Part shown: positions 5,833-42,914 of the stretch, piece after piece
Layout of the letters: each line of letters opens with the position of its first letter
How positions within the stretch are numbered: position 1 is the first letter of the stretch
IMG/VR virus record: IMGVR_UViG_2597489870_000002
Location: 1-44,053 of that record
Strand: one strand, 5' to 3'
Origin: a virus
Lineage: Duplodnaviria > Heunggongvirae > Uroviricota > Caudoviricetes
Length of the DNA: 44,053 nucleotides
The notes under the pieces: generated by a model
Seen by the model: the letters and a program-made list of their open reading frames with translations, nothing else
Told to the model about the DNA's origin: nothing
Database searches by the model: none
Made by a program: the position numbers and the translations under genes

Positions 5833-6417
5833 TTATTGTTTGTTTTTTTCGTTCTGGTTGATGACAAATTCAATGTAACTTTCGATCTTTGCTTTCTCGG
5901 TTTCGGGTAACAATGCGTAGCGCGAGCGGTCATAGTTGATGGTCGCAGGGTCGTGCGGGTGAATCAGTAATTCATAGCCGTGACGCCCGAATGCGGATGC
6001 AACATTCTCCAGGGTGGAAATGGAAACGCTGACCTCATTGTTTAACAGGCGGCTGATTGTCACCTGGGCGACGCCGGATGCGCGGTGAAGTTTTCCCTGT
6101 GTTGAAAGGTCGCGGCTTTCGCTCATCCAGCGTTCCAGGTTGTGAGCCGCCAGCTGACCTATATCGCTCGGGCCGACAGGCTGAAAACCTTCCTGAGAAA
6201 GCGAGCGATCGATATCAAGCCAGTTACGGGGTTTATTGGCGGCAGCTTCAATTTTTCGCGCAACCTGGTCGCCGATAACCTTCTTGCCAAGAGCCCAGCG
6301 GTTTACCAGATTTGCCTGAGTTCCAAGTTTTTCTGCCATCCGCGTCTGAACACCATTGAATTCACGGTCGATCAAGTCGTTGAGATTTTGCCTGCGGACG
6401 TCCTGGATACTTTTCAT
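5833..6417 (-). CDS. Prophage repressor candidate with two XRE-type HTH domains and no obvious S24 peptidase domain
   Basis: 194 aa. HTH1 is QTRMAEKLGTQANLVNRWALGKK and HTH2 is LHRASGVAQVTISRLLNNEVSVSISTLENVASAF. Divergent from the cro-like gene across an operator-rich spacer. Confidence 0.7.
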   Translation of the reverse strand: MKSIQDVRRQNLNDLIDREFNGVQTRMAEKLGTQANLVNRWALGKKVIGDQVARKIEAAANKPRNWLDIDRSLSQEGFQPVGPSDIGQLAAHNLERWMSESRDLSTQGKLHRASGVAQVTISRLLNNEVSVSISTLENVASAFGRHGYELLIHPHDPATINYDRSRYALLPETEKAKIESYIEFVINQNEKNKQ

Positions 6418-6471
6418 TTTCTGGAAAATCGCCTCATATATGAATCAGTAGATGATTCAATTTAAAGCAAT

Positions 6472-6536
6472 ATTACCCAACAGGTAAATGCACCCCATAG
6501 GTAACTATCCTTGATTTTTGTTACCTTATGGGTGAA
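6472..6536. promoter_or_regulatory. Immunity-region operators (three palindrome copies)
   Basis: ATTACCCAACAGGTAAA (6472-6488) abuts TGCACCCCATAGGTAAC (6489-6505). GTTACCTTATGGGTGAA (6520-6536) lies between a TTGTTA -35-like hexamer and a TATTAT -10-like hexamer for the rightward gene. Confidence 0.6.
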
Positions 6537-6571
6537 TATTTATTATCTGAAATAAATATCAGGCAATAGCT

Positions 6572-6802
6572 ATGAGCGATAACGGACATTTCGATTTCAA
6601 AAAGCACTGGCTTGCACTTACTCCGGATGAGCGTGAAGCCTTCGCACAGGAAGCCGGAACGACGAGTCACTATATCCAGACTCACTTAACAGGTAAGCGC
6701 AAAATGCCAGGTAAGGTATTGATGAATGGGCTTTTTAAAGCCTGTAAAACAAGACAATGGCTGCGCTCAAAAGCAGAACTGGCATACTTCTTCTACTCAT
6801 GA
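6572..6802 (+). CDS. Cro-like small DNA-binding protein
   Basis: 76 aa, divergent from the repressor. AQEAGTTSHYIQTHLTGKRKMP is HTH-like. Confidence 0.6.
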   Translation: MSDNGHFDFKKHWLALTPDEREAFAQEAGTTSHYIQTHLTGKRKMPGKVLMNGLFKACKTRQWLRSKAELAYFFYS

Positions 6803-6823
6803 TATCCAGCCACAACCCTCTGT

Positions 6824-6847
6824 AGACCGCCATCCGGCGGTCTTTTC
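6824..6847 (+). terminator. Rho-independent terminator after the cro-like gene
   Basis: Stem AGACCGCC / GGCGGTCT with loop ATCC, followed by TTTTC. Confidence 0.7.
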
Positions 6848-6856
6848 ATATCTATT

Positions 6857-6891
6857 CGTACCTCAAAGGTAATAAAAAACCAAATGTGGTT
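6857..6891 (+). promoter_or_regulatory. Palindrome plus ATGTGGTT box
   Basis: CGTACCTCAAAGGTAAT (6857-6873), then ATGTGGTT (6884-6891) embedded in AACCAAATGTGGTT. Confidence 0.5.
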
Positions 6892-6953
6892 GATCTTTTT
6901 TTTGTGTCAGCACAAAATAACCGTAATCCCAATACTAATAACAGGGCTTACCA

Positions 6954-7153
6954 TGGAAATCATTACACGTATTGATGCCGCAAAGCGCGGACTTAAACGC
7001 TATTACACCGGAAAACAATGTAAGCACGGACATGACAGTGAACGCTGGGTTTACAACGGACACTGTGTTGAGTGCACCATGGAATCAAACCGTCGCATCA
7101 GGGCAGAGATTAAGCAGATCATGATTAATTCCTCCCCACAACACTCAAGCTGA
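6954..7153 (+). CDS. Small Cys/His-rich (zinc-ribbon-like) protein
   Basis: The internal ATG at 6954 (MEIITRIDAAKRGLKRYYTGKQCKHGHDSERWVYNGHCVECT) is preferred over the track start at 6884, which is part of a regulatory motif. Confidence 0.55.
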
Positions 7154-7168
7154 TAGCGGAGATTAATC

Positions 7169-7984
7169 ATGAGCAGACATGCAACAGATTGGGCTTGGGA
7201 GACAGATCCAGGCAGCTCATCATTAAAGCTCATACTGCTCTCGATGGCTGACAGAGCCGATGAATATAACCTCTGCTACCCCAGCATAGAACGCCTCGTT
7301 AAAGACACTTGCCTGAATAAAAAAACCGTGCAGGCCGGGCTTATATCGCTCATGAAAATGGGGCTTATTTCAGATACCGGAGAGAGAAAGGGAGCGACAA
7401 AAAGAGTGCGGGTTTTCTCTCTTAATATAACCAAAAACGGGAACATTAAAGGCAACCGAGAGGGGGTCAATGAACCCGAAAACGGTAATGTTACCGAAAA
7501 CGGGAATATACCCAAAAACGGGATGTTGAATGATCCCAAAAACGGGATGTTGAATGATCCCAAAAACGGGATCCAGAACCAGTCATATAACCAGTCATTT
7601 AACCAAGAGAGGGAGAGCAGGACAAAAAACGGGGATTCTGTGCATCATGACCCCGGCGCAAACAACGCCGTGATGAATAACTTTGTTCCTCTTGGTGGGC
7701 CAGGGCAATTAGGCAAATTTGTCATGCATGAACAATGGCAGCCATCAGATGACTTTCTTCGGAAAAGCTCATTGCAGGGGATCTACCTGGACAGTCTGCC
7801 AACGGCACAGGAACTTGCAGAGTTCAGAATTTACTGGATGGCTGAGGGTAAGGCATACCATCAGGCACAGTGGGAGCAGAAGCTGGCAAGGCGGCTGCAG
7901 ATTAGCAGACAGAAGCAATCAACATTACCTGATAACAACGTTCCGCACTGGAACAGCCCTGAAGCATGGGAGGATTTCTTGTGA
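7169..7984 (+). CDS. Replication initiator (lambda O-like role) with N-terminal wHTH
   Basis: 271 aa. The N-terminus ATDWAWETD..LKLILLSMADRADEYNLCYPSIERLVKDTCLNKKTV is typical of phage replication-protein HTH domains. The gene contains the iteron array and is followed by a P-like gene. Confidence 0.7.
   Translation: MSRHATDWAWETDPGSSSLKLILLSMADRADEYNLCYPSIERLVKDTCLNKKTVQAGLISLMKMGLISDTGERKGATKRVRVFSLNITKNGNIKGNREGVNEPENGNVTENGNIPKNGMLNDPKNGMLNDPKNGIQNQSYNQSFNQERESRTKNGDSVHHDPGANNAVMNNFVPLGGPGQLGKFVMHEQWQPSDDFLRKSSLQGIYLDSLPTAQELAEFRIYWMAEGKAYHQAQWEQKLARRLQISRQKQSTLPDNNVPHWNSPEAWEDFL
7430..7605 (+). repeat. Origin-type iterons inside the initiator gene
   Basis: Six copies of CC(A/G)AAAACGG(G/T)A, with ACGG at 7437, 7482, 7500, 7518, 7542 and 7566. 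These include a perfect 24-bp tandem CCCAAAAACGGGATGTTGAATGAT x2 (7511-7558) plus a partial third copy. AACCAGTCATWT x2.5 follows at about 7575-7605. Confidence 0.75.
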
Positions 7985-15541: not shown

Positions 15542-15618
15542 TGGTGCGGCATGCAGGATTCGAACCTGCGGCCAACCGCTTAGAAGGCGGTTGCTCTATC
15601 CAACTGAGCTAATGCCAC
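15542..15618 (-). tRNA. tRNA-Arg (anticodon UCU), argU-like, with CCA encoded
   Basis: Hand-folded cloverleaf: GTGGCAT-TA-GCTC-AGTTGGATA-GAGC-A-ACCGC-CTTCTAA-GCGGT-TGGCC-GCAGG-TTCGAAT-CCTGC-ATGCCGC-A-CCA. Confidence 0.9.
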
Positions 15619-25189: not shown

Positions 25190-27700
25190 ATGCCAACAGT
25201 ACCAACAGTCACTGGTCGTCAGGTTGAAAGTCGCGGGTTTCAGTCTCCAGGGCTACAAACATTTAATACTCCACAGATGGGCGATGTTTTAGGAGGGGTT
25301 GCTGATAAATATGTCGATGTTTTTGCACAGGCAAAGCAGCGCGCTGATGTTGCTCAGGCTCAGGATGCATCATTGCAACTCAGCCAGATTTCCAGTGATC
25401 TGCTGACTAACCCGGATACTGGGCTGCTGAATCTCCAGGGTAAAAATGCGCTCGGCAAAGGTCAGGAGTACACCCAGCAGTTCGATGCTCAGGCAGAGCA
25501 GATCGCGATGACACTGCCGGAAGGTGCCAGGGCTGGTTTTATGCAGCAGGCGCAGCAGCAACGCATTCAGTTCACAACCCAGGCTGGTCGACATGAGATT
25601 AGCCAACTTAATGCCTATGAAGAAGGTCAGTTCCAGGCGACGCTGGCGAACAACGGAAAATTAGCCGCATCTGCCTACGGCGACAATGCTAACTATGTAC
25701 TCTACAACCAGCAGACTTTCCAGCAGATTGAAGATTACGGCGCTGCACATGGCTGGAGTTCTGAACAGATTCAAGCCAAAAAAATTGAGTTCAAAGAGAA
25801 GGTTGCTGATGCGTCACTGTCGCAGTGGTCGGCTAACAACTCCATTGAGTTCATTCAGAGCAATGGCGAGTTAAGCGATACGGTTACCGGCTCCCGCCGT
25901 GCAGTATCAGAAGGTGGTTCTGGTGATAGCGCTCGTGGCATTCGCAACAATAACCCCGGCAACCTCGAGTACAGCAAAACCAATCCGTGGGTAGGCCAGA
26001 CCGGTGATGATGGTCGCTTTGCCAAATTCGAAACGCCAGAGCACGGCATTCGCGCGCTAGGGCGCAACCTGCTTTCGTACCAACGCCAGGGGATTGATAC
26101 CGTCAACGACATCATTAACCGCTGGGCGCCGCCGTCTGACAATAACAACACCGACACCTATATCCAGGCAGTATGTGCGCAGCTCGGCGTGACTCCTGAC
26201 CAGCCTCTTGATGCATCAAACCCTGACACACTAAAGGCTTTGTGTGCCTCAATTATCCAGCATGAGAACGGCAGCCAGCCATACAGCGATCAGCAACTTG
26301 CTACTGGTGTTAGCGCGGCTATTGGCCTCTCTCAGCTTCCAACCAGCACAAAACGTTACACAGGTAATGCGGCATTCGATGCTGCATCTCCGGAGGCGCA
26401 GGCGACATTCCTTCGCCAGGCTGATCAGATCCGCAAACAGCAGCAGGCTGAATACCGCACCAATATCGACAGCCGTGTACGTGATGCCAGCGCGGCATAC
26501 ATGCGCGGCGTCGATTTCCCCAATGCGCCTACGCAGAACGACTTTATGGCGGCGTACGGCGTGCGTGAAGGAAACCTGCGTTACACCGAGTTCAGGAATA
26601 CGCAGATCGCCGGGCAATACATTGGTTCATTCCGTAATATGCCGACCAGTAGCATTCAGGCGGCAGTAGAAAACCTGAAGCCAGACACCGGTGAAACTGG
26701 TGAAGGATATGCAGCGCGCGCCCAAACCTATGATGCCGTTGTCTCTGCTGCCAGTACTGTTCTTGCGCAACGTAAAGCAGACCCAATTCAGTTTTCACTT
26801 TCTTCCGGGCAAACAAAGCCTATCGATATGACCAACCAGAACAATTTCAGCCAGACGATTGCCCTTCGTGCCTCTCAGGCTGCAGAACTGGCTAAATCAT
26901 ACGGCACGCCGCTGACATTCTTTTCCAAAGATGAAGCTAATCAGATCGGTGCTTTCTTCCGTGATGCACCAGTTTCTCAGCAGTCTGCATACCTCGACAC
27001 CATTCGGCAGAGTACTGGCGGTGGTCAGGTATATATGTCGGCGCTTCAGCAGATCAGCACCAATGCCCCATCGGCAGCTGTCGCCGGGATCCTTATGGAT
27101 AAGCCTGGCGGTGTTGTGGCTGAGAAAAACTGGTTTAACCCTGATGTTTCTGTATCACCTGAATCGGCAGCACAAACAATCCTTTCTGGTGCTGCAGCTC
27201 GCAAAGGTACAGGTGATGTGAAAGGCATACCAATGCCGAAAGATAACGATCTTCGTCTTGAGTTCTCTGACATGGTGAAGGATGCGTTTGCCGGTGACGC
27301 GCATGGCGCATCAATGGCCTACGAAATAGCGAAGGACTATTACGCTGGCGTGATGGCGAAGAAGGGCGTTGTATCAGGTGAGATTGACAGTGACACATGG
27401 AAGCAGGCTGTTAACGTAGCTACTGGCGGCGTACATGACTATAACGGCATGGGAAGCGTGCTGTTACCGTGGGGTATGTCTGCCGAGCAATTTGATAAAC
27501 AAGTTGATCAGGCCTGGAAAACACAGGTGACTGATGCAGGAATAAAAGCCCCACCAGGGCAGTATGGGCTGCAAAGCTATGGAGATAGCCAGTATCTGGT
27601 GAAGCTCGGCACCGGGTATTTGCTGAAAGATGATGGAACTCCTGTCGTTATCGATCTCACACAACAGCGCCAGAGGTTCTCAGGGGGGATCCCGCAATGA
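25190..27700 (+). CDS. Large internal/ejection protein with a putative cell-wall-active domain
   Basis: 836 aa with SD AAGGAG upstream. The segment ARGIRNNNPGNLEYSKTNPWVGQ..FAKFETPEHGIRALGRNLLSY recurs in phage structural proteins that have been linked to peptidoglycan; this is from memory. Confidence 0.6.
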   Translation: MPTVPTVTGRQVESRGFQSPGLQTFNTPQMGDVLGGVADKYVDVFAQAKQRADVAQAQDASLQLSQISSDLLTNPDTGLLNLQGKNALGKGQEYTQQFDAQAEQIAMTLPEGARAGFMQQAQQQRIQFTTQAGRHEISQLNAYEEGQFQATLANNGKLAASAYGDNANYVLYNQQTFQQIEDYGAAHGWSSEQIQAKKIEFKEKVADASLSQWSANNSIEFIQSNGELSDTVTGSRRAVSEGGSGDSARGIRNNNPGNLEYSKTNPWVGQTGDDGRFAKFETPEHGIRALGRNLLSYQRQGIDTVNDIINRWAPPSDNNNTDTYIQAVCAQLGVTPDQPLDASNPDTLKALCASIIQHENGSQPYSDQQLATGVSAAIGLSQLPTSTKRYTGNAAFDAASPEAQATFLRQADQIRKQQQAEYRTNIDSRVRDASAAYMRGVDFPNAPTQNDFMAAYGVREGNLRYTEFRNTQIAGQYIGSFRNMPTSSIQAAVENLKPDTGETGEGYAARAQTYDAVVSAASTVLAQRKADPIQFSLSSGQTKPIDMTNQNNFSQTIALRASQAAELAKSYGTPLTFFSKDEANQIGAFFRDAPVSQQSAYLDTIRQSTGGGQVYMSALQQISTNAPSAAVAGILMDKPGGVVAEKNWFNPDVSVSPESAAQTILSGAAARKGTGDVKGIPMPKDNDLRLEFSDMVKDAFAGDAHGASMAYEIAKDYYAGVMAKKGVVSGEIDSDTWKQAVNVATGGVHDYNGMGSVLLPWGMSAEQFDKQVDQAWKTQVTDAGIKAPPGQYGLQSYGDSQYLVKLGTGYLLKDDGTPVVIDLTQQRQRFSGGIPQ

Positions 27701-34628: not shown

Positions 34629-35357
34629 ATGGAAGTTTTCTGGATAGTTGTTGGTGTGGTTGCGGTGATTATTTACGTTATCAACCAGAACAAGACTAAG
34701 ATCTCTGATCGTACGGTCGTTAATCAGAACAAAACGATAAAGACCGAAGATGGGGAGATAACGATTAATCGTACACAGGTGATAGACCGCACCTCCACTC
34801 AGTTTCACAAAGCTGGAGGTGATGCGCCTAATATTTCCGTACCTCCTGATTATGATAGTGCGGTAATCCAGACATATTATAAACAGCAGGAGTTAGCAAA
34901 AGAGAGGCAACTGATTCAGCCAAAGCCATTTACAGCAGAGCTGCCACCTGGTGTGTCAACGCGTCCGACATATCATGGAAGATTCCCTGGTGATGACATA
35001 TCGTCTCAGTCACCTAAAAAAGCACTTCAGGTAGTATCAGAGCCAGCAAGAATACCTTCTGTGTCGCCGCCAAAAGAAGAATCAGCTAACAGAGTTTCAA
35101 GTGGTAGCAAGCAGTGTTTGCGATGCAGAATAAACCTTCCATATGAAAAATTCAGGAAATCTTCAAAAAATCCAGATGGATTGACTAAGTGGTGTGCAAG
35201 GTGTCTCGATGGCCCAAAGAATACACGCCATATGAAGTGGTGCCCAATTTGTAATGTCCGCAGAAAACGAACCAGCTTTTACCCTAATAATCAAAATGCG
35301 GATGGCTTAATGGCATGGTGCAAAACGTGCTGGGACGAGCACAAAGCGAAACGATAG
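34629..35357 (+). CDS. Membrane-anchored protein with two C-terminal zinc-ribbon repeats
   Basis: 242 aa. N-terminal TM MEVFWIVVGVVAVIIYVI. Repeats CLRCRINLPYEKFRKSSKNPDGLTKWCARC and CPICNVRRKRTSFYPNNQNADGLMAWCKTC. Confidence 0.7.
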   Translation: MEVFWIVVGVVAVIIYVINQNKTKISDRTVVNQNKTIKTEDGEITINRTQVIDRTSTQFHKAGGDAPNISVPPDYDSAVIQTYYKQQELAKERQLIQPKPFTAELPPGVSTRPTYHGRFPGDDISSQSPKKALQVVSEPARIPSVSPPKEESANRVSSGSKQCLRCRINLPYEKFRKSSKNPDGLTKWCARCLDGPKNTRHMKWCPICNVRRKRTSFYPNNQNADGLMAWCKTCWDEHKAKR

Positions 35358-35783: not shown

Positions 35784-36635
35784 AACCGGATATGCGGCGC
35801 AACGGGTGCTGCGACTATCTGGAGATTTAACATGACGGTCTCAACCGAAGTTGACCACAACGAATACACAGGTAACGGCGTTACGACATCATTTCCTTAT
35901 ACCTTTAGGGTTTTCAATAAATCTGATCTGGTAGTGCAGGTGATTGACCCTGACGAGAATATCACTGTGCTGGCTCTTGATACTGATTACACGGTGACGG
36001 GGGCTGGAGGATATACTGGCGGGAATGTCATCCTCACAACTGCTCTGGAGAATGGATTTCGTATTTCGATAGCACGTGAACTCCCAGTTACGCAGGAAAC
36101 CGATCTGCGCAATCAAGGCAAGTTCTTTGCAGAGGTGCATGAGGATGCTTTTGATAAGTTAACTATGCTGCTTCAACAGGTTAGAAGTTGGTTTAGTCTG
36201 GCGCTGCGCAAGCCGTCGTTTGTCGCAAACTACTATGATGCTCTTGGTAACTACATCCGCAATCTTCGTGACCCGTCACGTCCTCAGGATGCGGCCACCA
36301 AGAATTATGTCGACTCACTGGCAAGCATTAATCTGTCTAAAACGCTGAGAATGCCAGAGGCAGTACCAGAGCTTCCAAGCGCTGAGCTGAGAAAAAACAA
36401 AATTGTAGCAATGGATGATTCAGGAAATCCTATCATGGTTCTGCCTGAATCTGGTTCCGCTTCAGATGTAATGATTCAACTTGCATCAAGCAATGGTTTA
36501 AAGTTTATAGGTGATGTTCAGTCTGTTATAAAATTAAATGATGCTATCGGAAACATAGGTGATAAGATTTTTTTAAAGTCTTATGTTGAAGGTGAGAATA
36601 AAGGTGGTGGGATTCTTGTTGCTGTTGATAACTCA

Positions 36636-36643
36636 CTATTAGC
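36636..36643. repeat. Target-site duplication, left copy
   Basis: CTATTAGC, identical to 39343-39350. Confidence 0.9.
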
Positions 36644-36696
36644 GTAACCGGCTCATTTAAACCGTCTGGTCTGTTTCCTCCGGCTCTACAAAAATA

Positions 36697-37374
36697 ATGT
36701 CCATCATTTTTAATGGACACTATCGTATGAAACACCGGACCTGGATCACTGAAGCTTTACGTCTTCACTTTGAAGAACATTTACCCCGGGTTGTGGCCGG
36801 GCGTCGCCTGGGTGTACCAAAATCAACAGTTTGTAGTATGTTCGTGCGCTTTCGGAGAGCTGGCCTTTCGTGGCCTTTGCCCGCAGGCATGTCGGAGCAG
36901 GAACTTGATGCCTGCCTTTACGGACAATTTTCCACGGTACCAGTCGTACGTCCTGAAAGCACCGTTATATCCGAAGCCCCCGTGGTAAAAAAACGTCCCC
37001 GGCGGCCCAACTTCCCTTATGAGTTTAAAATCGCCTTAGTGGAGCAGTCACTGCAGCCCGGAGCCTGTGTGGCGCAGATCGCCCGGGAAAACGGAATCAA
37101 CGATAACCTGCTCTTCAACTGGCGCCATCAATACCGGAAAGGTGGCCTGCTGCCTTCCGGAAAAAATATGCCGGCACTGCTTCCCGTGACGTTAACGCCG
37201 GAGCCGGATAATAAAATCCCGGCCCCCGCACAGGAACCAGAGCAGATAAATACACCGTCCGACAGTCTGTGTTGTGAGCTGGTTCTGCCGGCCGGAACTC
37301 TCAGGCTTAAAGGTAAACTGACGCCGGCGTTATTACAGACACTTATCCGCGAAATAAAAGGGAGCAGCCACTGA
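36697..37374 (+). CDS. tnpA: IS66-family accessory protein TnpA (orfA)
   Basis: RRPNFPYEFKIALVEQSLQPGACVAQIARENGINDNLLFNWRHQYRKG. The start is uncertain (an alternative ATG lies at 36727). Confidence 0.75.
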   Translation: MSIIFNGHYRMKHRTWITEALRLHFEEHLPRVVAGRRLGVPKSTVCSMFVRFRRAGLSWPLPAGMSEQELDACLYGQFSTVPVVRPESTVISEAPVVKKRPRRPNFPYEFKIALVEQSLQPGACVAQIARENGINDNLLFNWRHQYRKGGLLPSGKNMPALLPVTLTPEPDNKIPAPAQEPEQINTPSDSLCCELVLPAGTLRLKGKLTPALLQTLIREIKGSSH

Positions 37375-37721
37375 TGATATCTCTCCCTGCAGGTTCGCGT
37401 ATCTGGCTGGTTGCAGGTATCACCGATATGCGAAATGGCTTTAACGGCCTGGCATCAAAAGTTCAGAACGTCCTGAAGGATGACCCGTTCTCCGGACACC
37501 TGTTCATCTTCCGCGGACGCCGGGGTGACCAGATAAAAGTGTTGTGGGCTGACAGTGACGGACTGTGCCTCTTCACCAAACGCCTGGAGCGGGGCCGCTT
37601 CGTCTGGCCAGTCACCCGTGACGGCAAGGTGCACCTTACTCCGGCTCAGTTATCCATGCTTCTTGAAGGTATCAACTGGAAGCACCCGAAACGAACGGAA
37701 CGCGCTGGAATCCGCATATAA
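37374..37721 (+). CDS. tnpB: IS66-family TnpB (orfB)
   Basis: 115 aa. ..RIWLVAGITDMRNGFNGLASKVQ..DPFSGHLFIFRGRRGDQIKVLWAD is the classic IS66 orf2. ATGA-type coupling to orfA. Confidence 0.9.
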   Translation: MISLPAGSRIWLVAGITDMRNGFNGLASKVQNVLKDDPFSGHLFIFRGRRGDQIKVLWADSDGLCLFTKRLERGRFVWPVTRDGKVHLTPAQLSMLLEGINWKHPKRTERAGIRI

Positions 37722-37740
37722 CCCGTTGTAAAGTGAGGAT

Positions 37741-39312
37741 ATGGACACCTCACTTGCTCATGAGAACGCCCGCCTGCGGGCACTGTTGCAGACGCAACAG
37801 GACACCATCCGCCAGATGGCTGAATACAACCGCCTGCTCTCACAGCGGGTGGCGGCTTATGCTTCCGAAATCAACCGGCTGAAGGCGCTGGTTGCGAAAC
37901 TGCAACGTATGCAGTTCGGTAAAAGCTCAGAAAAACTTCGTGCAAAAACCGAACGGCAGATACAGGAAGCACAGGAGCGAATCAGCGCACTTCAGGAAGA
38001 AATGGCGGAAACGCTGGGTGAGCAATATGACCCGGTACTGCCATCCGCCCTGCGCCAGTCTTCAGCCCGTAAACCGTTACCGGCCTCACTTCCCCGTGAA
38101 ACCCGGGTTATCCGGCCGGAAGAGGAATGCTGTCCTGCCTGTGGTGGTGAACTCAGTTCTCTGGGATGTGATGTGTCAGAGCAACTGGAGCTTATCAGCA
38201 GCGCCTTTAAGGTTATCGAAACACAACGTCCGAAACAGGCCTGTTGCCGGTGCGACCATATCGTGCAGGCACCAGTACCTTCAAAACCCATTGCACGCAG
38301 TTATGCCGGAGCGGGGCTTCTGGCCCATGTTGTCACCGGGAAATATGCAGACCATCTGCCGTTATACCGCCAGTCAGAAATATACCGTCGTCAGGGAGTG
38401 GAGCTGAGCCGTGCCACACTGGGGCGCTGGACAGGTGCTGTTGCTGAACTGCTGGAGCCGCTGTATGACGTCCTGCGCCAGTATGTGCTGATGCCCGGTA
38501 AAGTCCATGCTGATGATATCCCCGTCCCGGTCCAGGAGCCGGGCAGCGGTAAAACCCGGACAGCCCGGCTGTGGGTCTACGTCCGTGATGACCGTAACGC
38601 CGGTTCACAGATGCCCCCGGCGGTCTGGTTCGCGTACAGTCCGGACCGGAAAGGTATCCATCCACAAAATCACCTGGCCGGTTACAGCGGTGTGCTTCAG
38701 GCCGATGCTTACGGTGGTTACCGGGCGTTATACGAATCCGGCAGAATAACGGAAGCCGCGTGTATGGCTCATGCCCGGAGAAAAATCCACGATGTGCATG
38801 CAAGAGCGCCCACCTACATCACCACGGAAGCCCTGCAGCGTATCGGTGAACTGTATGCCATCGAGGCAGAGGTCCGGGGCTGTTCAGCAGAACAGCGTCT
38901 GGCGGCAAGAAAAGCCAGAGCCGCGCCACTGATGCAGTCACTGTATGACTGGATACAGCAACAGATGAAAACACTGTCGCGTCACTCAGATACGGCAAAA
39001 GCGTTCGCATACCTGCTGAAACAGTGGGATGCACTGAACGTGTACTGCAGTAATGGCTGGGTGGAAATCGACAACAACATCGCAGAGAACGCCTTACGGG
39101 GAGTGGCCGTAGGCCGGAAAAACTGGATGTTCGCGGGTTCCGACAGCGGTGGTGAACATGCGGCGGTGTTGTACTCGCTGATCGGCACATGCCGTCTGAA
39201 CAATGTGGAGCCAGAAAAGTGGCTGCGTTACGTCATTGAACATATCCAGGACTGGCCGGCAAACCGGGTACGCGATCTGTTGCCCTGGAAAGTTGATCTG
39301 AGCTCTCAGTAA
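37741..39312 (+). CDS. tnpC: IS66-family transposase TnpC (orfC)
   Basis: 523 aa with an N-terminal leucine-zipper-like coil, a CPACGG zinc motif and a DDE-type core (..LQADAYGGY..). Confidence 0.9.
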
Positions 39313-39342
39313 ATATCAATACGGTTCTGACGAGTCGCTTAC

Positions 39343-39350
39343 CTATTAGC
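39343..39350. repeat. Target-site duplication, right copy
   Basis: CTATTAGC. Confidence 0.9.
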
Positions 39351-40848
39351 AGATGATATAGTTATATTTAATGGTAATGGAGTGAAATGGAGACGTCTAT
39401 TTTTTACTGGTGAAGTAACTGTATTCGACGCTGGTTATACAGGCTCTGGCGACATTGCTCAATATATAAACAAAATAAATTCAGCAGGATATGACTGCGT
39501 TATTCCATGCTCAGGTGATTTTTCGAGTGCTATTGCAATAGATGTAAGCAAGGGCAGCGTAAGGGGGGTAAATAAATGCATACTTACCGAGATTCCAGGC
39601 GTATCTGGAGATTATGCGCTGACGATTGTTAACTCAAATACAGATTATGCTGACCGTGATGCAATTAATGCTACAGCTATCATTGACGGAGTAGCATTTA
39701 ATTTCATGGGCACCAAAAAAGTTGGTTTGGGAGGGGTAGGTACTGGGGATCTTTCAGAGTTGCGGATCAGTAACGTGGGTATGATTGGTTCCGCTGGTGT
39801 AGAATTCCTGGAAAATTCATATCGTTTGATGTTCGATAAATTTGCTATATCGAGAAGCTTTACCAACACTATCATTTTTAACTCGCCAGCAAATTCTGGT
39901 GAGGTTATTAAATTCAGTCACGGTTGGATGGTTGATAATGGTGGACCGCTAACATTTAATAACGGTCAATTTATTTTTGACTCATGCTCAATGCCTGCCG
40001 GGAAGAAAGTGGGTTATTTAGAGCCAAGTGTAATTATGCATGGCAACGCTCACGTTGTTTATGCTAACGGTAATGTCGAATTCCAGCCCGGGCAGAGCTT
40101 TGTAGCCTTTGTTGTGGATGGCAGTTCAAGGCTGTCAATCAAGGACACCACCATACTTACGCCTACTGGTTATTCAGCCATACCAATAATCGCAAATGAT
40201 GATGGGGTTGTGTCACTGACAAACTGCTCTCTTCCATTATATGACCAGAAGGATCTGGCTGCTGGCGCTGCTACTCGTCAAGTGATTGGTGGAAATAGTA
40301 AGAAGGTTATCTCCCGTGGATGCTACCCTCGGGCAGGTTTTATAACATCCAACTGGGATAAGGGTAATATAGTTAGTCCATTTATCAACGCGCTAAGTAA
40401 TGGTAGTGGTCAGTTCTCAAACTATTCCAACTGGGTTTTGGCACAAAAAGGTACAGGTGTCGTAACTGCGGGTACTGATACGGATGTCCCTAACACTGTT
40501 ATGTTTTCCAGATCACTGTATGTGAATATTCCATCGGTTGGGGCTGCTGCTGATTTTTATCAGGAATGCTTAGAATGCGAGCCAGGGCGGTATTTCCAGT
40601 TAGGTTTCTGGGCTAAAAATCAAGTTACAACAATTTCTGGAATTGAATTTTTTGATAAAGAAGGTAACTCAGTACAAGGTAAAGGAACATTTACAATTCC
40701 AACTGGTTCTACATTTAATTTCTACGCATTAATAGATGTTGTTCCTCCTGGTGCAAGTAAGGTTAGGATTGGATTTGATGTATCAGGATCGGTTGGTTCT
40801 CTTCATATCCATAATGCTATTTATGGATTGATATAAACACTAAATTTC

Positions 40849-40908
40849 CTTACCTTTAAGGTAAAGATTTTAAGATGCATTTAAGGTAATTATTACTCAT
40901 ATATGGTT
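40849..40908 (+). promoter_or_regulatory. Palindrome and ATATGGTT box upstream of the lysis cassette
   Basis: CTTACCTTTAAGGTAAA (40849-40865). GGTAATTATTACT (40885-40897) is the same 13-mer as at 12585-12597. ATATGGTT (40901-40908), then TGTGTATGAT. Confidence 0.5.
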
Positions 40909-40970
40909 TATTGTGTATGATGAACTCACCAACTAAGGGGGTTCATTATGCGCAGTAAACGGTGGTTGAT

Positions 40971-41375
40971 ATGTCAGCTCAGCTAACCAGTGAGTCTTTA
41001 AATCAGTGGCTTAGTATGGGTTCTCTGGCTGCGGTTATCGCCGGAGTTCCTCCCGAGGTGGCTCTTGGTGCTTTATCAGGCGCGGTAATATTTATTACCT
41101 CTGCCGTTGAGTACCCAATACGCCGCCGGGTTCTTCTGTCGATGCTCAGCTTTCTATGCGGGCTTCTATTCTACAAACCAACTGCATCAATCCTTATCGG
41201 CGTAGCCAGCCTGATCCCAACTATCACGCAGGATTCATTCGAGAAAGGGATCGTCTTCTCTGCTGGCGCGTTCGTGTCGGCAATCGTCGCAGTACGTATT
41301 GGTATCTGGCTCTATCACCGTTCCGACAATCCACGCGATTTAATCCCGGGGAGAAAAGACGATGACAACTCATGA
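40971..41375 (+). CDS. Holin candidate (multi-TM)
   Basis: 134 aa from the ATG at 40971 (an alternative GTG start lies at 40962). Three to four TM segments and a charged C-terminus. First gene of the lysis cassette. Confidence 0.65.
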   Translation: MSAQLTSESLNQWLSMGSLAAVIAGVPPEVALGALSGAVIFITSAVEYPIRRRVLLSMLSFLCGLLFYKPTASILIGVASLIPTITQDSFEKGIVFSAGAFVSAIVAVRIGIWLYHRSDNPRDLIPGRKDDDNS

Positions 41376-41670
41376 GCTGCTTTTACTCATTGCCAATGCG
41401 GTTATCTGTTCTGCGATAGCAATCCGCGTCGGAACCTTCCGGCGTAATGGATCGCAACACCGGCGGTGGGGTGGGTGGATAGCCTACTTCCTTATCGTAG
41501 CGTCAGCCAGCATCCCCGTACGCGCCGCATATGCAATCTGGTATCACACACCAATGGTCGCTGATTTATCAGAGGTAATTATCAATGCTGTCATGCTTGC
41601 CGCCGTTCTGAAGACGCGCGGTAACGTCGTGCAGATATTTAAAATATCGAGGTCTCAACATGGACATTAA
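41362..41670 (+). CDS. Second holin/antiholin-like membrane protein
   Basis: 102 aa with three TM segments. Overlaps both neighbouring genes. Confidence 0.6.
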   Translation: MTTHELLLLIANAVICSAIAIRVGTFRRNGSQHRRWGGWIAYFLIVASASIPVRAAYAIWYHTPMVADLSEVIINAVMLAAVLKTRGNVVQIFKISRSQHGH

Positions 41671-42286
41671 CCAGTTCCGGCGGGCAGCCGGTATTACTGA
41701 ACAACAGGCCACGCGCTGGTATTCACATATCTCCGCAGCCATGAAAGAGTTTGGCATTACCAAGCCAGATGATCAGGCGATGTTTATTGCGCAGGTCGGG
41801 CATGAGTCAGGAGGGTTTACTCGGTTACAGGAGAACTTCAACTACAACGTAAACGGGCTGTCCGGGTTTATCCGCGCCGGACGCATCACTCAGGACCAGG
41901 CCAACGCGCTGGGCCGAAAAACATATGAGAAGTCTCTGCCTCTGGAACGCCAGCGCGCGATCGCCAACCTAGTGTACAGCAAGCGCTACGGTAACAATGC
42001 GCCTGGTGATGGATGGAAATACCGTGCGCGTGGACTCATCGGTATTACGTTCCTCGATAACTACCGGGATTGCGGAAACGGTCTGAAGGTTGATCTGGTA
42101 GCACAGCCTGAACTGCTAGCGCAGGATGAGTATGCGGCCCGCAGCGCGGCGTGGTTCTTCGCCACTAAAGGCTGCATGAAGTACACCGGAGACATGGTGC
42201 GTGTAACGCAGATCATCAATGGCGGCCAGAACGGTATCGACGACCGGCGCGCGCGGTACATCACCGCCAGCAAGGTGCTTTTATGA
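41660..42286 (+). CDS. Endolysin, glycoside hydrolase family 19 (chitinase-like)
   Basis: FIAQVGHESGGFTRLQENFNY..YGNNAPGDGWKYRARGLIGITFLDNY is the GH19 phage-lysin pattern. Confidence 0.85.
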   Translation: MDINQFRRAAGITEQQATRWYSHISAAMKEFGITKPDDQAMFIAQVGHESGGFTRLQENFNYNVNGLSGFIRAGRITQDQANALGRKTYEKSLPLERQRAIANLVYSKRYGNNAPGDGWKYRARGLIGITFLDNYRDCGNGLKVDLVAQPELLAQDEYAARSAAWFFATKGCMKYTGDMVRVTQIINGGQNGIDDRRARYITASKVLL

Positions 42287-42765
42287 TCTGGGCGCTCGTC
42301 AAAGCGTACTGGAAACAGTTGCTTATCGTGTTGATGCTTGCTGCTCTGGTCATCAGTGGAGTTGTTGCCTGGAATGTACACGGCAGCCGCCAGTACGATG
42401 CTGGTTATGCAAAGGCAAAAGCAGACCGCAAAGCAGAAGATGATAAAGCTCGTCAGCACGACGAACAGGAGAAAGCGACCAATGAACGTGAAGCGCAGCA
42501 GAGGATCGACCAGGCGCGCAATGATGCTCTTGATGCTGCCGCTCGCGCTGGCAGGTTGCAGCAACAGCTCGTTGCCATCCGTGAGCAGCTCAGGCAGTAT
42601 AACGCCACTGTCGGCACTGGGTCGTCAGCCGCAGACACCGGAGTTTTGCTTACCGACGTGCTCAGCAAATCTCTCGAGCGAAACCGTCAGCTGGCAGAGT
42701 ACGCTGACCGGGCAGCCGAAGCCGGACGAGTCTGTGAAAAGCAGTACGATTCGTTGACCAGGTGA
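42283..42765 (+). CDS. Rz: i-spanin (Rz-like)
   Basis: 160 aa. N-terminal TM followed by a long coiled coil. ATGA overlap with the endolysin gene. Confidence 0.8.
   Translation: MIWALVKAYWKQLLIVLMLAALVISGVVAWNVHGSRQYDAGYAKAKADRKAEDDKARQHDEQEKATNEREAQQRIDQARNDALDAAARAGRLQQQLVAIREQLRQYNATVGTGSSAADTGVLLTDVLSKSLERNRQLAEYADRAAEAGRVCEKQYDSLTR
42482..42757 (+). CDS. Rz1: o-spanin (Rz1-like lipoprotein), embedded in the +1 frame of Rz
   Basis: Lipobox LALAGC|S followed by a Pro/Ser-rich mature part. AGGAG lies 10 nt before the ATG at 42482. Entirely inside the Rz gene. Confidence 0.75.
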   Translation: MNVKRSRGSTRRAMMLLMLPLALAGCSNSSLPSVSSSGSITPLSALGRQPQTPEFCLPTCSANLSSETVSWQSTLTGQPKPDESVKSSTIR

Positions 42766-42914
42766 CATGGCATTTTTCATGGTACTGATTTCCGGTGACG
42801 GTATATAAAACGGTACGGGAAAAATCAGGTTTAAGAAAGTTGTTACCAGTCAATTGCTTATGTTGTCCGTAAATAATTGAGTGGGAATGATTTGACCCTG
42901 CACTATGAATGAAC

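Follow-up and report, generated by a model that had tools for sequence, protein, structure and literature searches.

An ISCro1 insertion splits the O78-type tailspike gene of a phiV10-like prophage in Escherichia coli H10407

We analysed 44,053 nucleotides of viral DNA (IMG/VR record IMGVR_UViG_2597489870_000002; this whole stretch is hereafter called the window) in which the tailspike gene of a prophage is split by an insertion sequence (IS) of the IS66 family, ISCro1. The element lies in codon 271 of what is the sole tailspike gene, and very probably this insertion is the whole explanation for a prophage that would no longer be transmissible. The window is the reverse complement of about 2.840-2.884 Mb of the chromosome of the enterotoxigenic E. 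coli (ETEC) strain H10407 (O78:H11; NC_017633.1), where the prophage is found between guaA and yfgI, at the 3' end of guaA. Its structural genes are 84-85% identical at the nucleotide level to those of phages phiv142-3 and phiV10, its gene order is that of phiV10, and on these similarities we class it as a Uetakevirus (phiV10/epsilon15 type).

The 5' part of the tailspike gene (35832-36643, + strand), identified from the list of open reading frames (ORFs) and by homology with gp25 of phiV10, contains codons 1-270 and the first two nucleotides of codon 271. The 3' part (39351-40836, + strand), identified by an AlphaFold model and by homology with the tailspike TSP4 of phage CBA120 and the depolymerase of phage vB_EcoM_ECOO78, contains the last nucleotide of codon 271, codons 272-765, and the stop codon. 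When position 36643 is joined in silico to 39351, which removes the IS and one copy of the repeat that flanks it, the result is an ORF of 2,298 nt (765 codons and a stop) in which codon 271 (Ala, split as GC and A) straddles the restored junction. This reproduces the single frame of 270 + 1 + 494 codons that had been proposed from the letters of the window (hereafter, the sequence-only reading). Neither half of the gene carries an extra stop codon or frameshift. In the interrupted gene, the reading frame of the 5' part extends by one codon into the IS before a TAA (36645-36647) ends it, which gives a product of 271 residues. This product is on record as "phage tail-fibre protein" (CBJ02124.1) and was found on 50 contigs and in 111 blocks of the contig index. 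The current RefSeq annotation marks the IS, lists the 5' fragment as a pseudogene (ETEC_RS14250), and lists the 3' fragment as a "hypothetical protein" of 484 residues (WP_000872050.1) starting at the GTG at 39382, where a GGAG directly abuts the start codon with no spacer. In the original annotation the fragments were named "phage tail-fibre protein" and "hypothetical protein ETEC_2613C".

The IS spans 36644-39342 (2,699 bp, + strand, in the same orientation as the tailspike gene), as supported by the RefSeq annotation and by identical copies elsewhere. A second copy in H10407, near tibA (2306-2309 kb), is homologous over exactly the same ends, from GTAACCGG to CGCTTAC, with 5 mismatches in 2,699 positions, and therefore confirms these limits independently. 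The element is bordered by a perfect 8-bp target-site duplication, CTATTAGC, whose left copy (36636-36643) occurs as a single copy at the same place in an intact allele described below and whose right copy (39343-39350) was read directly from the sequence. Apart from these two copies, one at each end of the IS, the octamer occurs on neither strand of the window; the chance that a specific octamer recurs exactly at the other end is about 1/65,536. The 22-bp terminal inverted repeats, GTAACCGGCTCATTTAAACCGT on the left (36644-36665, + strand) and, as the reverse complement, GTAAGCGACTCGTCAGAACCGT on the right (39321-39342, - strand), are imperfect and match at 16 of 22 positions. Both ends begin with GTAA, as do inverted repeats of the IS66 type (GTAA(G/C)CG, about 20-30 bp). 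The GC content is 0.55 in the IS and 0.35-0.41 in its flanks.

Three genes fill the element, all on the + strand: tnpA (36697-37374; accessory protein of 225 aa; Pfam HTH_Tnp_1, NCBIfam IS66_access_TnpA at 296 bits), tnpB (37374-37721; accessory protein of 115 aa; Pfam TnpB_IS66, E = 5e-40, NCBIfam IS66_TnpB), and tnpC (37741-39312; DDE transposase of 523 aa; Pfam DDE_Tnp_IS66, E = 2.5e-103, NCBIfam transpos_IS66 at 478 bits). The transposase also contains the Pfam domains zf-IS66, LZ_Tnp_IS66, and DDE_Tnp_IS66_C, and the NCBIfam equivalog scores of all the ORFs exceed their cut-offs. The tnpB gene does not encode the TnpB nuclease of IS200/IS605 elements. The span, the imperfect 22-bp ends, the perfect 8-bp repeat, and the IS66 assignment put forward in the sequence-only reading have thus all held, the last of these by virtue of the 8-bp duplication, the GTAA ends, and the tnpA-tnpB-tnpC order. 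The ORFs are intact, which is consistent with an element retaining transposition activity.

By its identity to annotated copies, and in the RefSeq annotation of this locus, the element is ISCro1. Full-length copies that are 100% identical to it, and annotated as "IS66-like element ISCro1 family transposase", are present in many genomes of E. coli; of 5,426 genomes, 1,493 have a copy that covers 80% or more of the element. An ISEc8-type identity, which the sequence-only reading had suggested for comparison, was rejected because of the 100% identity to the copies named ISCro1 in RefSeq. ISCro1 was first named in Citrobacter rodentium ICC168 (PMC3072379), and its insertions are documented to alter gene expression, for instance at the afa/dr promoter of ST131 (PMC8764528). 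The copy in the window shares with it the tnpA-tnpB-tnpC order, the IS66 DDE domains, the GTAA ends, and the 8-bp target duplication; it shows no structural difference and simply adds a copy at another location. Sequences similar to this IS are found at 13 places in the H10407 chromosome. The tibA island (2290-2314 kb of NC_017633.1; positions 1-24300 of our extract L010) carries dense copies of IS66-family elements (ISEc23-like, ISCro1-like, and others), together with IS3, IS30, IS600, and IS100; several are truncated. This island is a likely source of the ISCro1 copy that entered the prophage.

Intact alleles of the gene show what the site looks like before insertion. The closest one (allele P0144, assembly GCA_958315745.1; hereafter, L011) is an uninterrupted gene of 2,298 nt that is 99.3% identical to the restored H10407 gene, with 16 nucleotide and 5 amino acid differences. 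It agrees with the excised H10407 sequence at every one of the 60 nt around the junction, and it has a single CTATTAGC, at nt 805-812. Because the junction is identical and the octamer is present exactly once, L011 is a genuine empty site. The corresponding gene of strain E7 ("putative phage tail protein", 765 aa) is collinear with the restored gene without gaps, differs from it by 32 nucleotides and 12 amino acids, and has a single CTATCAGC at the insertion target. The genes of strains TW14425 and APEC17 are also collinear and equal in length, and the protein encoded in TW14425 is 79% identical in amino acids to the restored one; the protein search returned three clusters of full-length proteins of 765 aa (P0001-P0003), one of which (P0003) is from Salmonella diarizonae. 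The sequence-only reading had set beforehand, as a check, that intact homologues should be continuous across the proposed junction; when this was examined, they proved to be single ORFs of 765 codons with no gaps.

The differences between the H10407 and E7 alleles are unevenly distributed: 21 of the 32 fall within a patch of 190 nt (nt 671-858 of the restored ORF, in the region 36502-36689 of the window) that spans the insertion site, and L011 carries the H10407 version. The clustering of the substitutions suggests a small tract of recombination close to the junction between the anchor and the receptor-binding domain (RBD).

The restored protein joins two modules of different affinity, as shown by comparisons with the Protein Data Bank (PDB), with PHROGs, and, by tblastn, with phages. 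Residues 1-266 are 75% identical to phiV10 gp25 (YP_512279.1; BLASTP, E = 4e-142), with identity remaining high up to about residue 226, in agreement with the epsilon15/phiV10-type tailspike recognised in the sequence-only reading. The anchor of Uetakeviruses has been delimited as the first 205 aa, on the basis of homology to the first ~205 aa of YP_512279.1 (PMC10408124), and the restored protein has this homology. Residues 215-765 match TSP4 of CBA120 (PDB 5W6H; phmmer, E = 5e-228; 61% identity by tblastn), and the receptor-binding module is 75% identical to the depolymerase of vB_EcoM_ECOO78. Searches of Pfam-A and NCBIfam with the restored and E7 proteins returned no family; a precomputed PF27114 label is not in the Pfam-A copy that was searched. 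In an AlphaFold2 model of the E7-type allele, the predicted local distance difference test score (pLDDT) is about 90 for residues 230-765, and the best Foldseek match of the model is 5w6h_A (E = 1.5e-71, template modelling scores of 0.70/0.76). The model has a neck helix at residues 210-218 followed by a small domain, which we infer to be the D3' domain described in TSP4. The 3' part of the gene encodes the remainder of this small domain, the beta-helix, and the C-terminal beta-sandwich.

The position of the IS relative to these modules is the one point at which the sequence-only reading was not upheld. There, the N-terminal domain and the receptor-binding part had been taken to lie on either side of the insertion. 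Near residue 190 (~36400) the GC content drops from 0.47 to 0.35, the resemblance to phiV10 fades, the match to TSP4 begins, and the published anchor ends, all N-terminal of codon 271; since these four markers put the module boundary upstream, we rejected an insertion at an inter-module linker. Of the 5' part, the stretch encoding about residues 210-270 thus falls in the receptor-binding module and that for about residues 1-205/226 in the anchor. In the model, strands 260-265 and 276-278 of the small domain flank residue 271, in a region where the pLDDT is 94-95. Judging from the homologies and the model, the IS is about 45-65 residues inside the receptor-binding module and breaks the folded small domain, which makes reassembly of the fragments unlikely.

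The phiV10 gp25 has a homologous anchor, occupies the same position in the genome (after a divergent p24 homologue and before the lysis cassette), and, like the H10407 spike, is the single receptor-binding protein (RBP) of its phage; the two phages also have in common the attachment region at guaA. In epsilon15 the named counterpart of the tailspike is gp20. Yet the phiV10 spike has 875 aa and targets O157, whereas that of H10407 has 765 aa, is of the O78/TSP4 type, and is interrupted; their receptor-binding modules are unrelated. An O-acetyltransferase follows the spike in phiV10 and is missing in H10407. TSP4, on the other hand, carries at its N-terminus XD domains resembling T4 gp10 and a D1-D2 head, where the H10407 spike has a podovirus anchor of the phiV10 type. 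ISCro1, the phiV10-type anchor, and the TSP4/O78 module each come from a described family.

TSP4 cleaves the O78 O-antigen (PMC8825819), and an O78 subtype of RBPs has been described that includes CBA120 TSP4 (orf213), the vB_EcoM_ECOO78 depolymerase, PhaxI, AVIO78A, and others (PMC10408124). To count as a member under that work, a protein must share 30% identity or more with an experimentally validated O78 RBP across 60% or more of the RBD. Over residues 215-765 the restored protein reaches 61% identity with TSP4 and 75% with the ECOO78 depolymerase, and the AlphaFold2 model shows the beta-helix body and C-terminal domain of 5W6H. H10407 itself carries O78 wzx and wzy. Among complete genomes, the 812-nt 5' part is matched at 97.9% identity or more only in H10407, SEC470 (a duplicate of H10407), E7, TW14425, and APEC17, and all of these are among the 40 of 5,426 genomes with O78 wzx. 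The homology to TSP4 and other O78 proteins, together with the O78 association of the hosts, leads us to regard the prophage spike as probably specific for the serogroup of its own host. Such an agreement, as read from these sequences, is as expected for Uetakevirus prophages.

In TW14425 and APEC17 (6357-7460 in both extracts, L003 and L004), an acyltransferase gene follows the tailspike gene, at the position of the phiV10 O-acetyltransferase; it is absent from the corresponding interval of the window (40837-40961). The receptor-binding part of the TW14425 protein is about 50-80% identical to the H10407/E7 type, and both strains are O78. The combination of acyltransferase and diverged spike may reflect co-variation with an acetylated O78 antigen.

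The remainder of the prophage appears intact. Strain E7 has a closely related prophage at the same site as H10407, with an identical integrase, and the early regions of the two are 100% identical in protein. From the integrase to Rz, all the E7 prophage proteins that have a counterpart in the window match it over their full length, the tailspike alone being split; five accessory genes of the E7 prophage have no counterpart in the window. The earlier impression that the other genes look intact is borne out by these alignments. An 11-bp sequence from the end of guaA, TGGGAATGATT, is present at both prophage ends, and this repeat is likely the core of the attachment (att) site. Its copies lie at 42882-42892 of the window and at 45030-45040 of the RefSeq copy of the H10407 record (L002), and only 11 bp of identity could be read directly. 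A hairpin resembling the guaA terminator is likewise duplicated at both prophage ends and is likely a restored terminator.

Taken together, these data suggest the following scenario. A copy of ISCro1 transposed into codon 271, duplicating its 8-bp target, in a gene predicted to encode a trimeric tailspike of 765 aa made of an anchor (about residues 1-205), a neck helix, a small domain, a beta-helix, and a C-terminal sandwich. Translation would now end after residue 271, leaving an anchor without a receptor-binding body, while the other 494 codons would be left with neither anchor nor neck nor a good start site. Excision, replication, and packaging should remain within the reach of the prophage, because the other genes are full length and the putative att core is repeated at both ends, and it might also lyse its host. 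The particles released would then be spikeless and unable to bind or cut O78 lipopolysaccharide. Uetakeviruses have a single RBP (PMC10408124), and the anchor domain has a match in one place only of the H10407 chromosome, so complementation in trans is not expected. The expected phenotype is analogous to that of the "heads" made by gene 9 mutants of P22, which is a Lederbergvirus and whose lesions are point or amber mutations, not IS insertions. P22 heads lacking the tailspike are filled with DNA and non-infectious, and they are activated by the addition of purified tailspike. By this analogy and from the structure of the gene, the prophage is most likely non-infectious and non-adsorbing.

Several points weigh against this interpretation. 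The loss of adsorption is a prediction from the state of the gene. If the downstream holin, endolysin, and Rz genes are transcribed together with the tailspike gene, the IS could be polar on them, and the phenotype would then be "no lysis" rather than the release of spikeless particles. The monomer model of the anchor is poor (pLDDT below 50), its fold being taken from sequence homology alone. The exact restored H10407 protein had no match in a collection of 15 billion proteins, and the allele immediately ancestral to the insertion is unsampled, the nearest intact one differing at 5 residues. Finally, all of the H10407-derived records that we saw carry the disrupted allele.

Could the gene be something other than a recently broken tailspike gene? 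Some phages encode anchor and spike as two proteins, and RefSeq lists the 3' part as an independent protein of 484 aa from GTG 39382, as it would be if an adaptor and a spike were naturally separate genes with the IS merely between them and no gene destroyed. We rejected this explanation, which is extremely unlikely, because in L011, E7, TW14425, and the S. diarizonae cluster P0003 the gene is one ORF of 765 codons, gapless over the junction; moreover, the break falls inside a confidently folded domain and GTG 39382 has its GGAG adjoining it. Copies of IS are a classic source of misassembly, and with 13 similar places in the chromosome a repeat might have been misplaced into the prophage. The perfect target duplication argues against such an artefact, and each junction is reproduced exactly by two assemblies that differ in length, the original H10407 record (L007, of which L002 is the RefSeq copy) and a separate assembly of 5,167,819 bp (L008), while the left one is also exact in a metagenome scaffold (L009). 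The 271-residue product, whose last codon and stop come from the end of the IS and which no event but this insertion could yield, recurs on the contigs and in the index blocks mentioned above. With junctions exact across independent assemblies, we discarded an artefact as having almost no chance of being the explanation. In L008 (GCA_052953355.1, 4557-6967), the ORFs of the IS and its neighbours are called short (161, 33, and 519 aa) and a Bro-N gene is split, which suggests uncorrected indel errors of that assembly, not real differences.

It is also conceivable that the insertion is old and sits in a decaying remnant, so that the tailspike lesion is one of several defects. H10407 has many IS and pseudogenes, as in its IS-riddled island, and the competence of the other genes is judged by their length and similarity alone. 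This is unlikely, since the genes with E7 counterparts align unbroken over their full length, the early proteins are 100% identical, the guaA-end repeat is present at both prophage ends, the ORFs of the IS are intact with 100% identical copies elsewhere, and neither half of the gene has a further stop or frameshift. A recent insertion, as claimed in the sequence-only reading, is consistent with the perfect repeats, the intact ORFs and identical copies of the IS, and the lack of extra lesions. The records of the disrupted allele (those of H10407, one near-identical assembly, and one metagenome scaffold that, to judge by its name, ETEC16-1, belongs to work on ETEC) are uninformative on its age. 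The split might, alternatively, not be fully inactivating, if the fragments reassembled or if the free 484-aa piece were a soluble O78 depolymerase useful to the host. The IS has the orientation of the gene, which makes read-through transcription conceivable, and tailspikes truncated at the N-terminus, TSP4dN for example, do fold and have been crystallised (5w6h). However, the neck helix and some 60 residues at the start of the module, which 5w6h keeps, are missing from the C-terminal piece; the start context of this piece is poor, and an anchorless fragment cannot join the virion. The promoter scan found no outward promoter-like site on the + strand at the right end of the IS; shuffled sequences gave more promoter-like sites than the real one and about the same number of terminator-like sites. 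We consider residual function of this kind very unlikely. We are equally doubtful of a selected domestication, in which H10407 keeps the immunity, the PerC-like regulator, and other accessory genes of a prophage unable to spread, and/or read-through from the IS supplies a free 484-aa O78 depolymerase fragment that trims the O-antigen of its own cell, with rare precise excision between the 8-bp repeats acting as a reversible switch back to an infectious phage.

If ISCro1 has indeed abolished adsorption, the guaA-site phiV10-like prophage of H10407, a standard ETEC challenge and reference strain, is probably non-transmissible, which matters for prophage induction, for work on phages and defence, and for the biosafety assessment of the strain. 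The annotation can be corrected: WP_000872050.1 and ETEC_RS14250 belong together as the halves of a single O78-type tailspike. The restored sequence and the E7 and L011 alleles are candidate O78 depolymerases or RBPs that might serve as typing reagents or in engineered tailocins and phages against O78 ETEC and avian pathogenic E. coli (APEC). A literature search combining H10407 with prophage and IS66 or tailspike found no paper on this disruption, the original genome paper lying outside its coverage. Inactivation of a prophage gene by an IS is commonplace, and the present case is correct and ordinary, raising no new conceptual question.

Other features of the window complete the description of the prophage. 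The lysis cassette (40962-42765, + strand) comprises two holins, a GH19 endolysin, and an Rz-like spanin, as annotated and as indicated by full-length matches to proteins of the E7 prophage. An internal virion or ejection-type protein (25190-27700, + strand) has 836 aa, versus 837 aa in phiV10 and 935 aa in E7; the excess of the E7 protein maps to its residues ~255-346, pointing to mosaicism and not to truncation. Between the terminase and portal regions there is a tRNA-Arg (anticodon TCT; 15542-15618, - strand), a placement common to the E7 prophage and to the O157 typing phages 9 and 10, both related to phiV10. A cysteine-rich ORF of 242 aa (34629-35357, + strand; phrog_6762) weakly matches endonuclease VII and Lar-like zinc motifs; the H10407 and L011 prophages both have it, and E7 has other genes in that interval. 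The neighbours of the integrase encode a PerC-family regulator (2559-2810), an MT-A70 DNA methyltransferase (1916-2578), and a Ser/Thr phosphatase (1260-2039), all on the - strand, and each of the three has a 100% identical counterpart in the E7 prophage.

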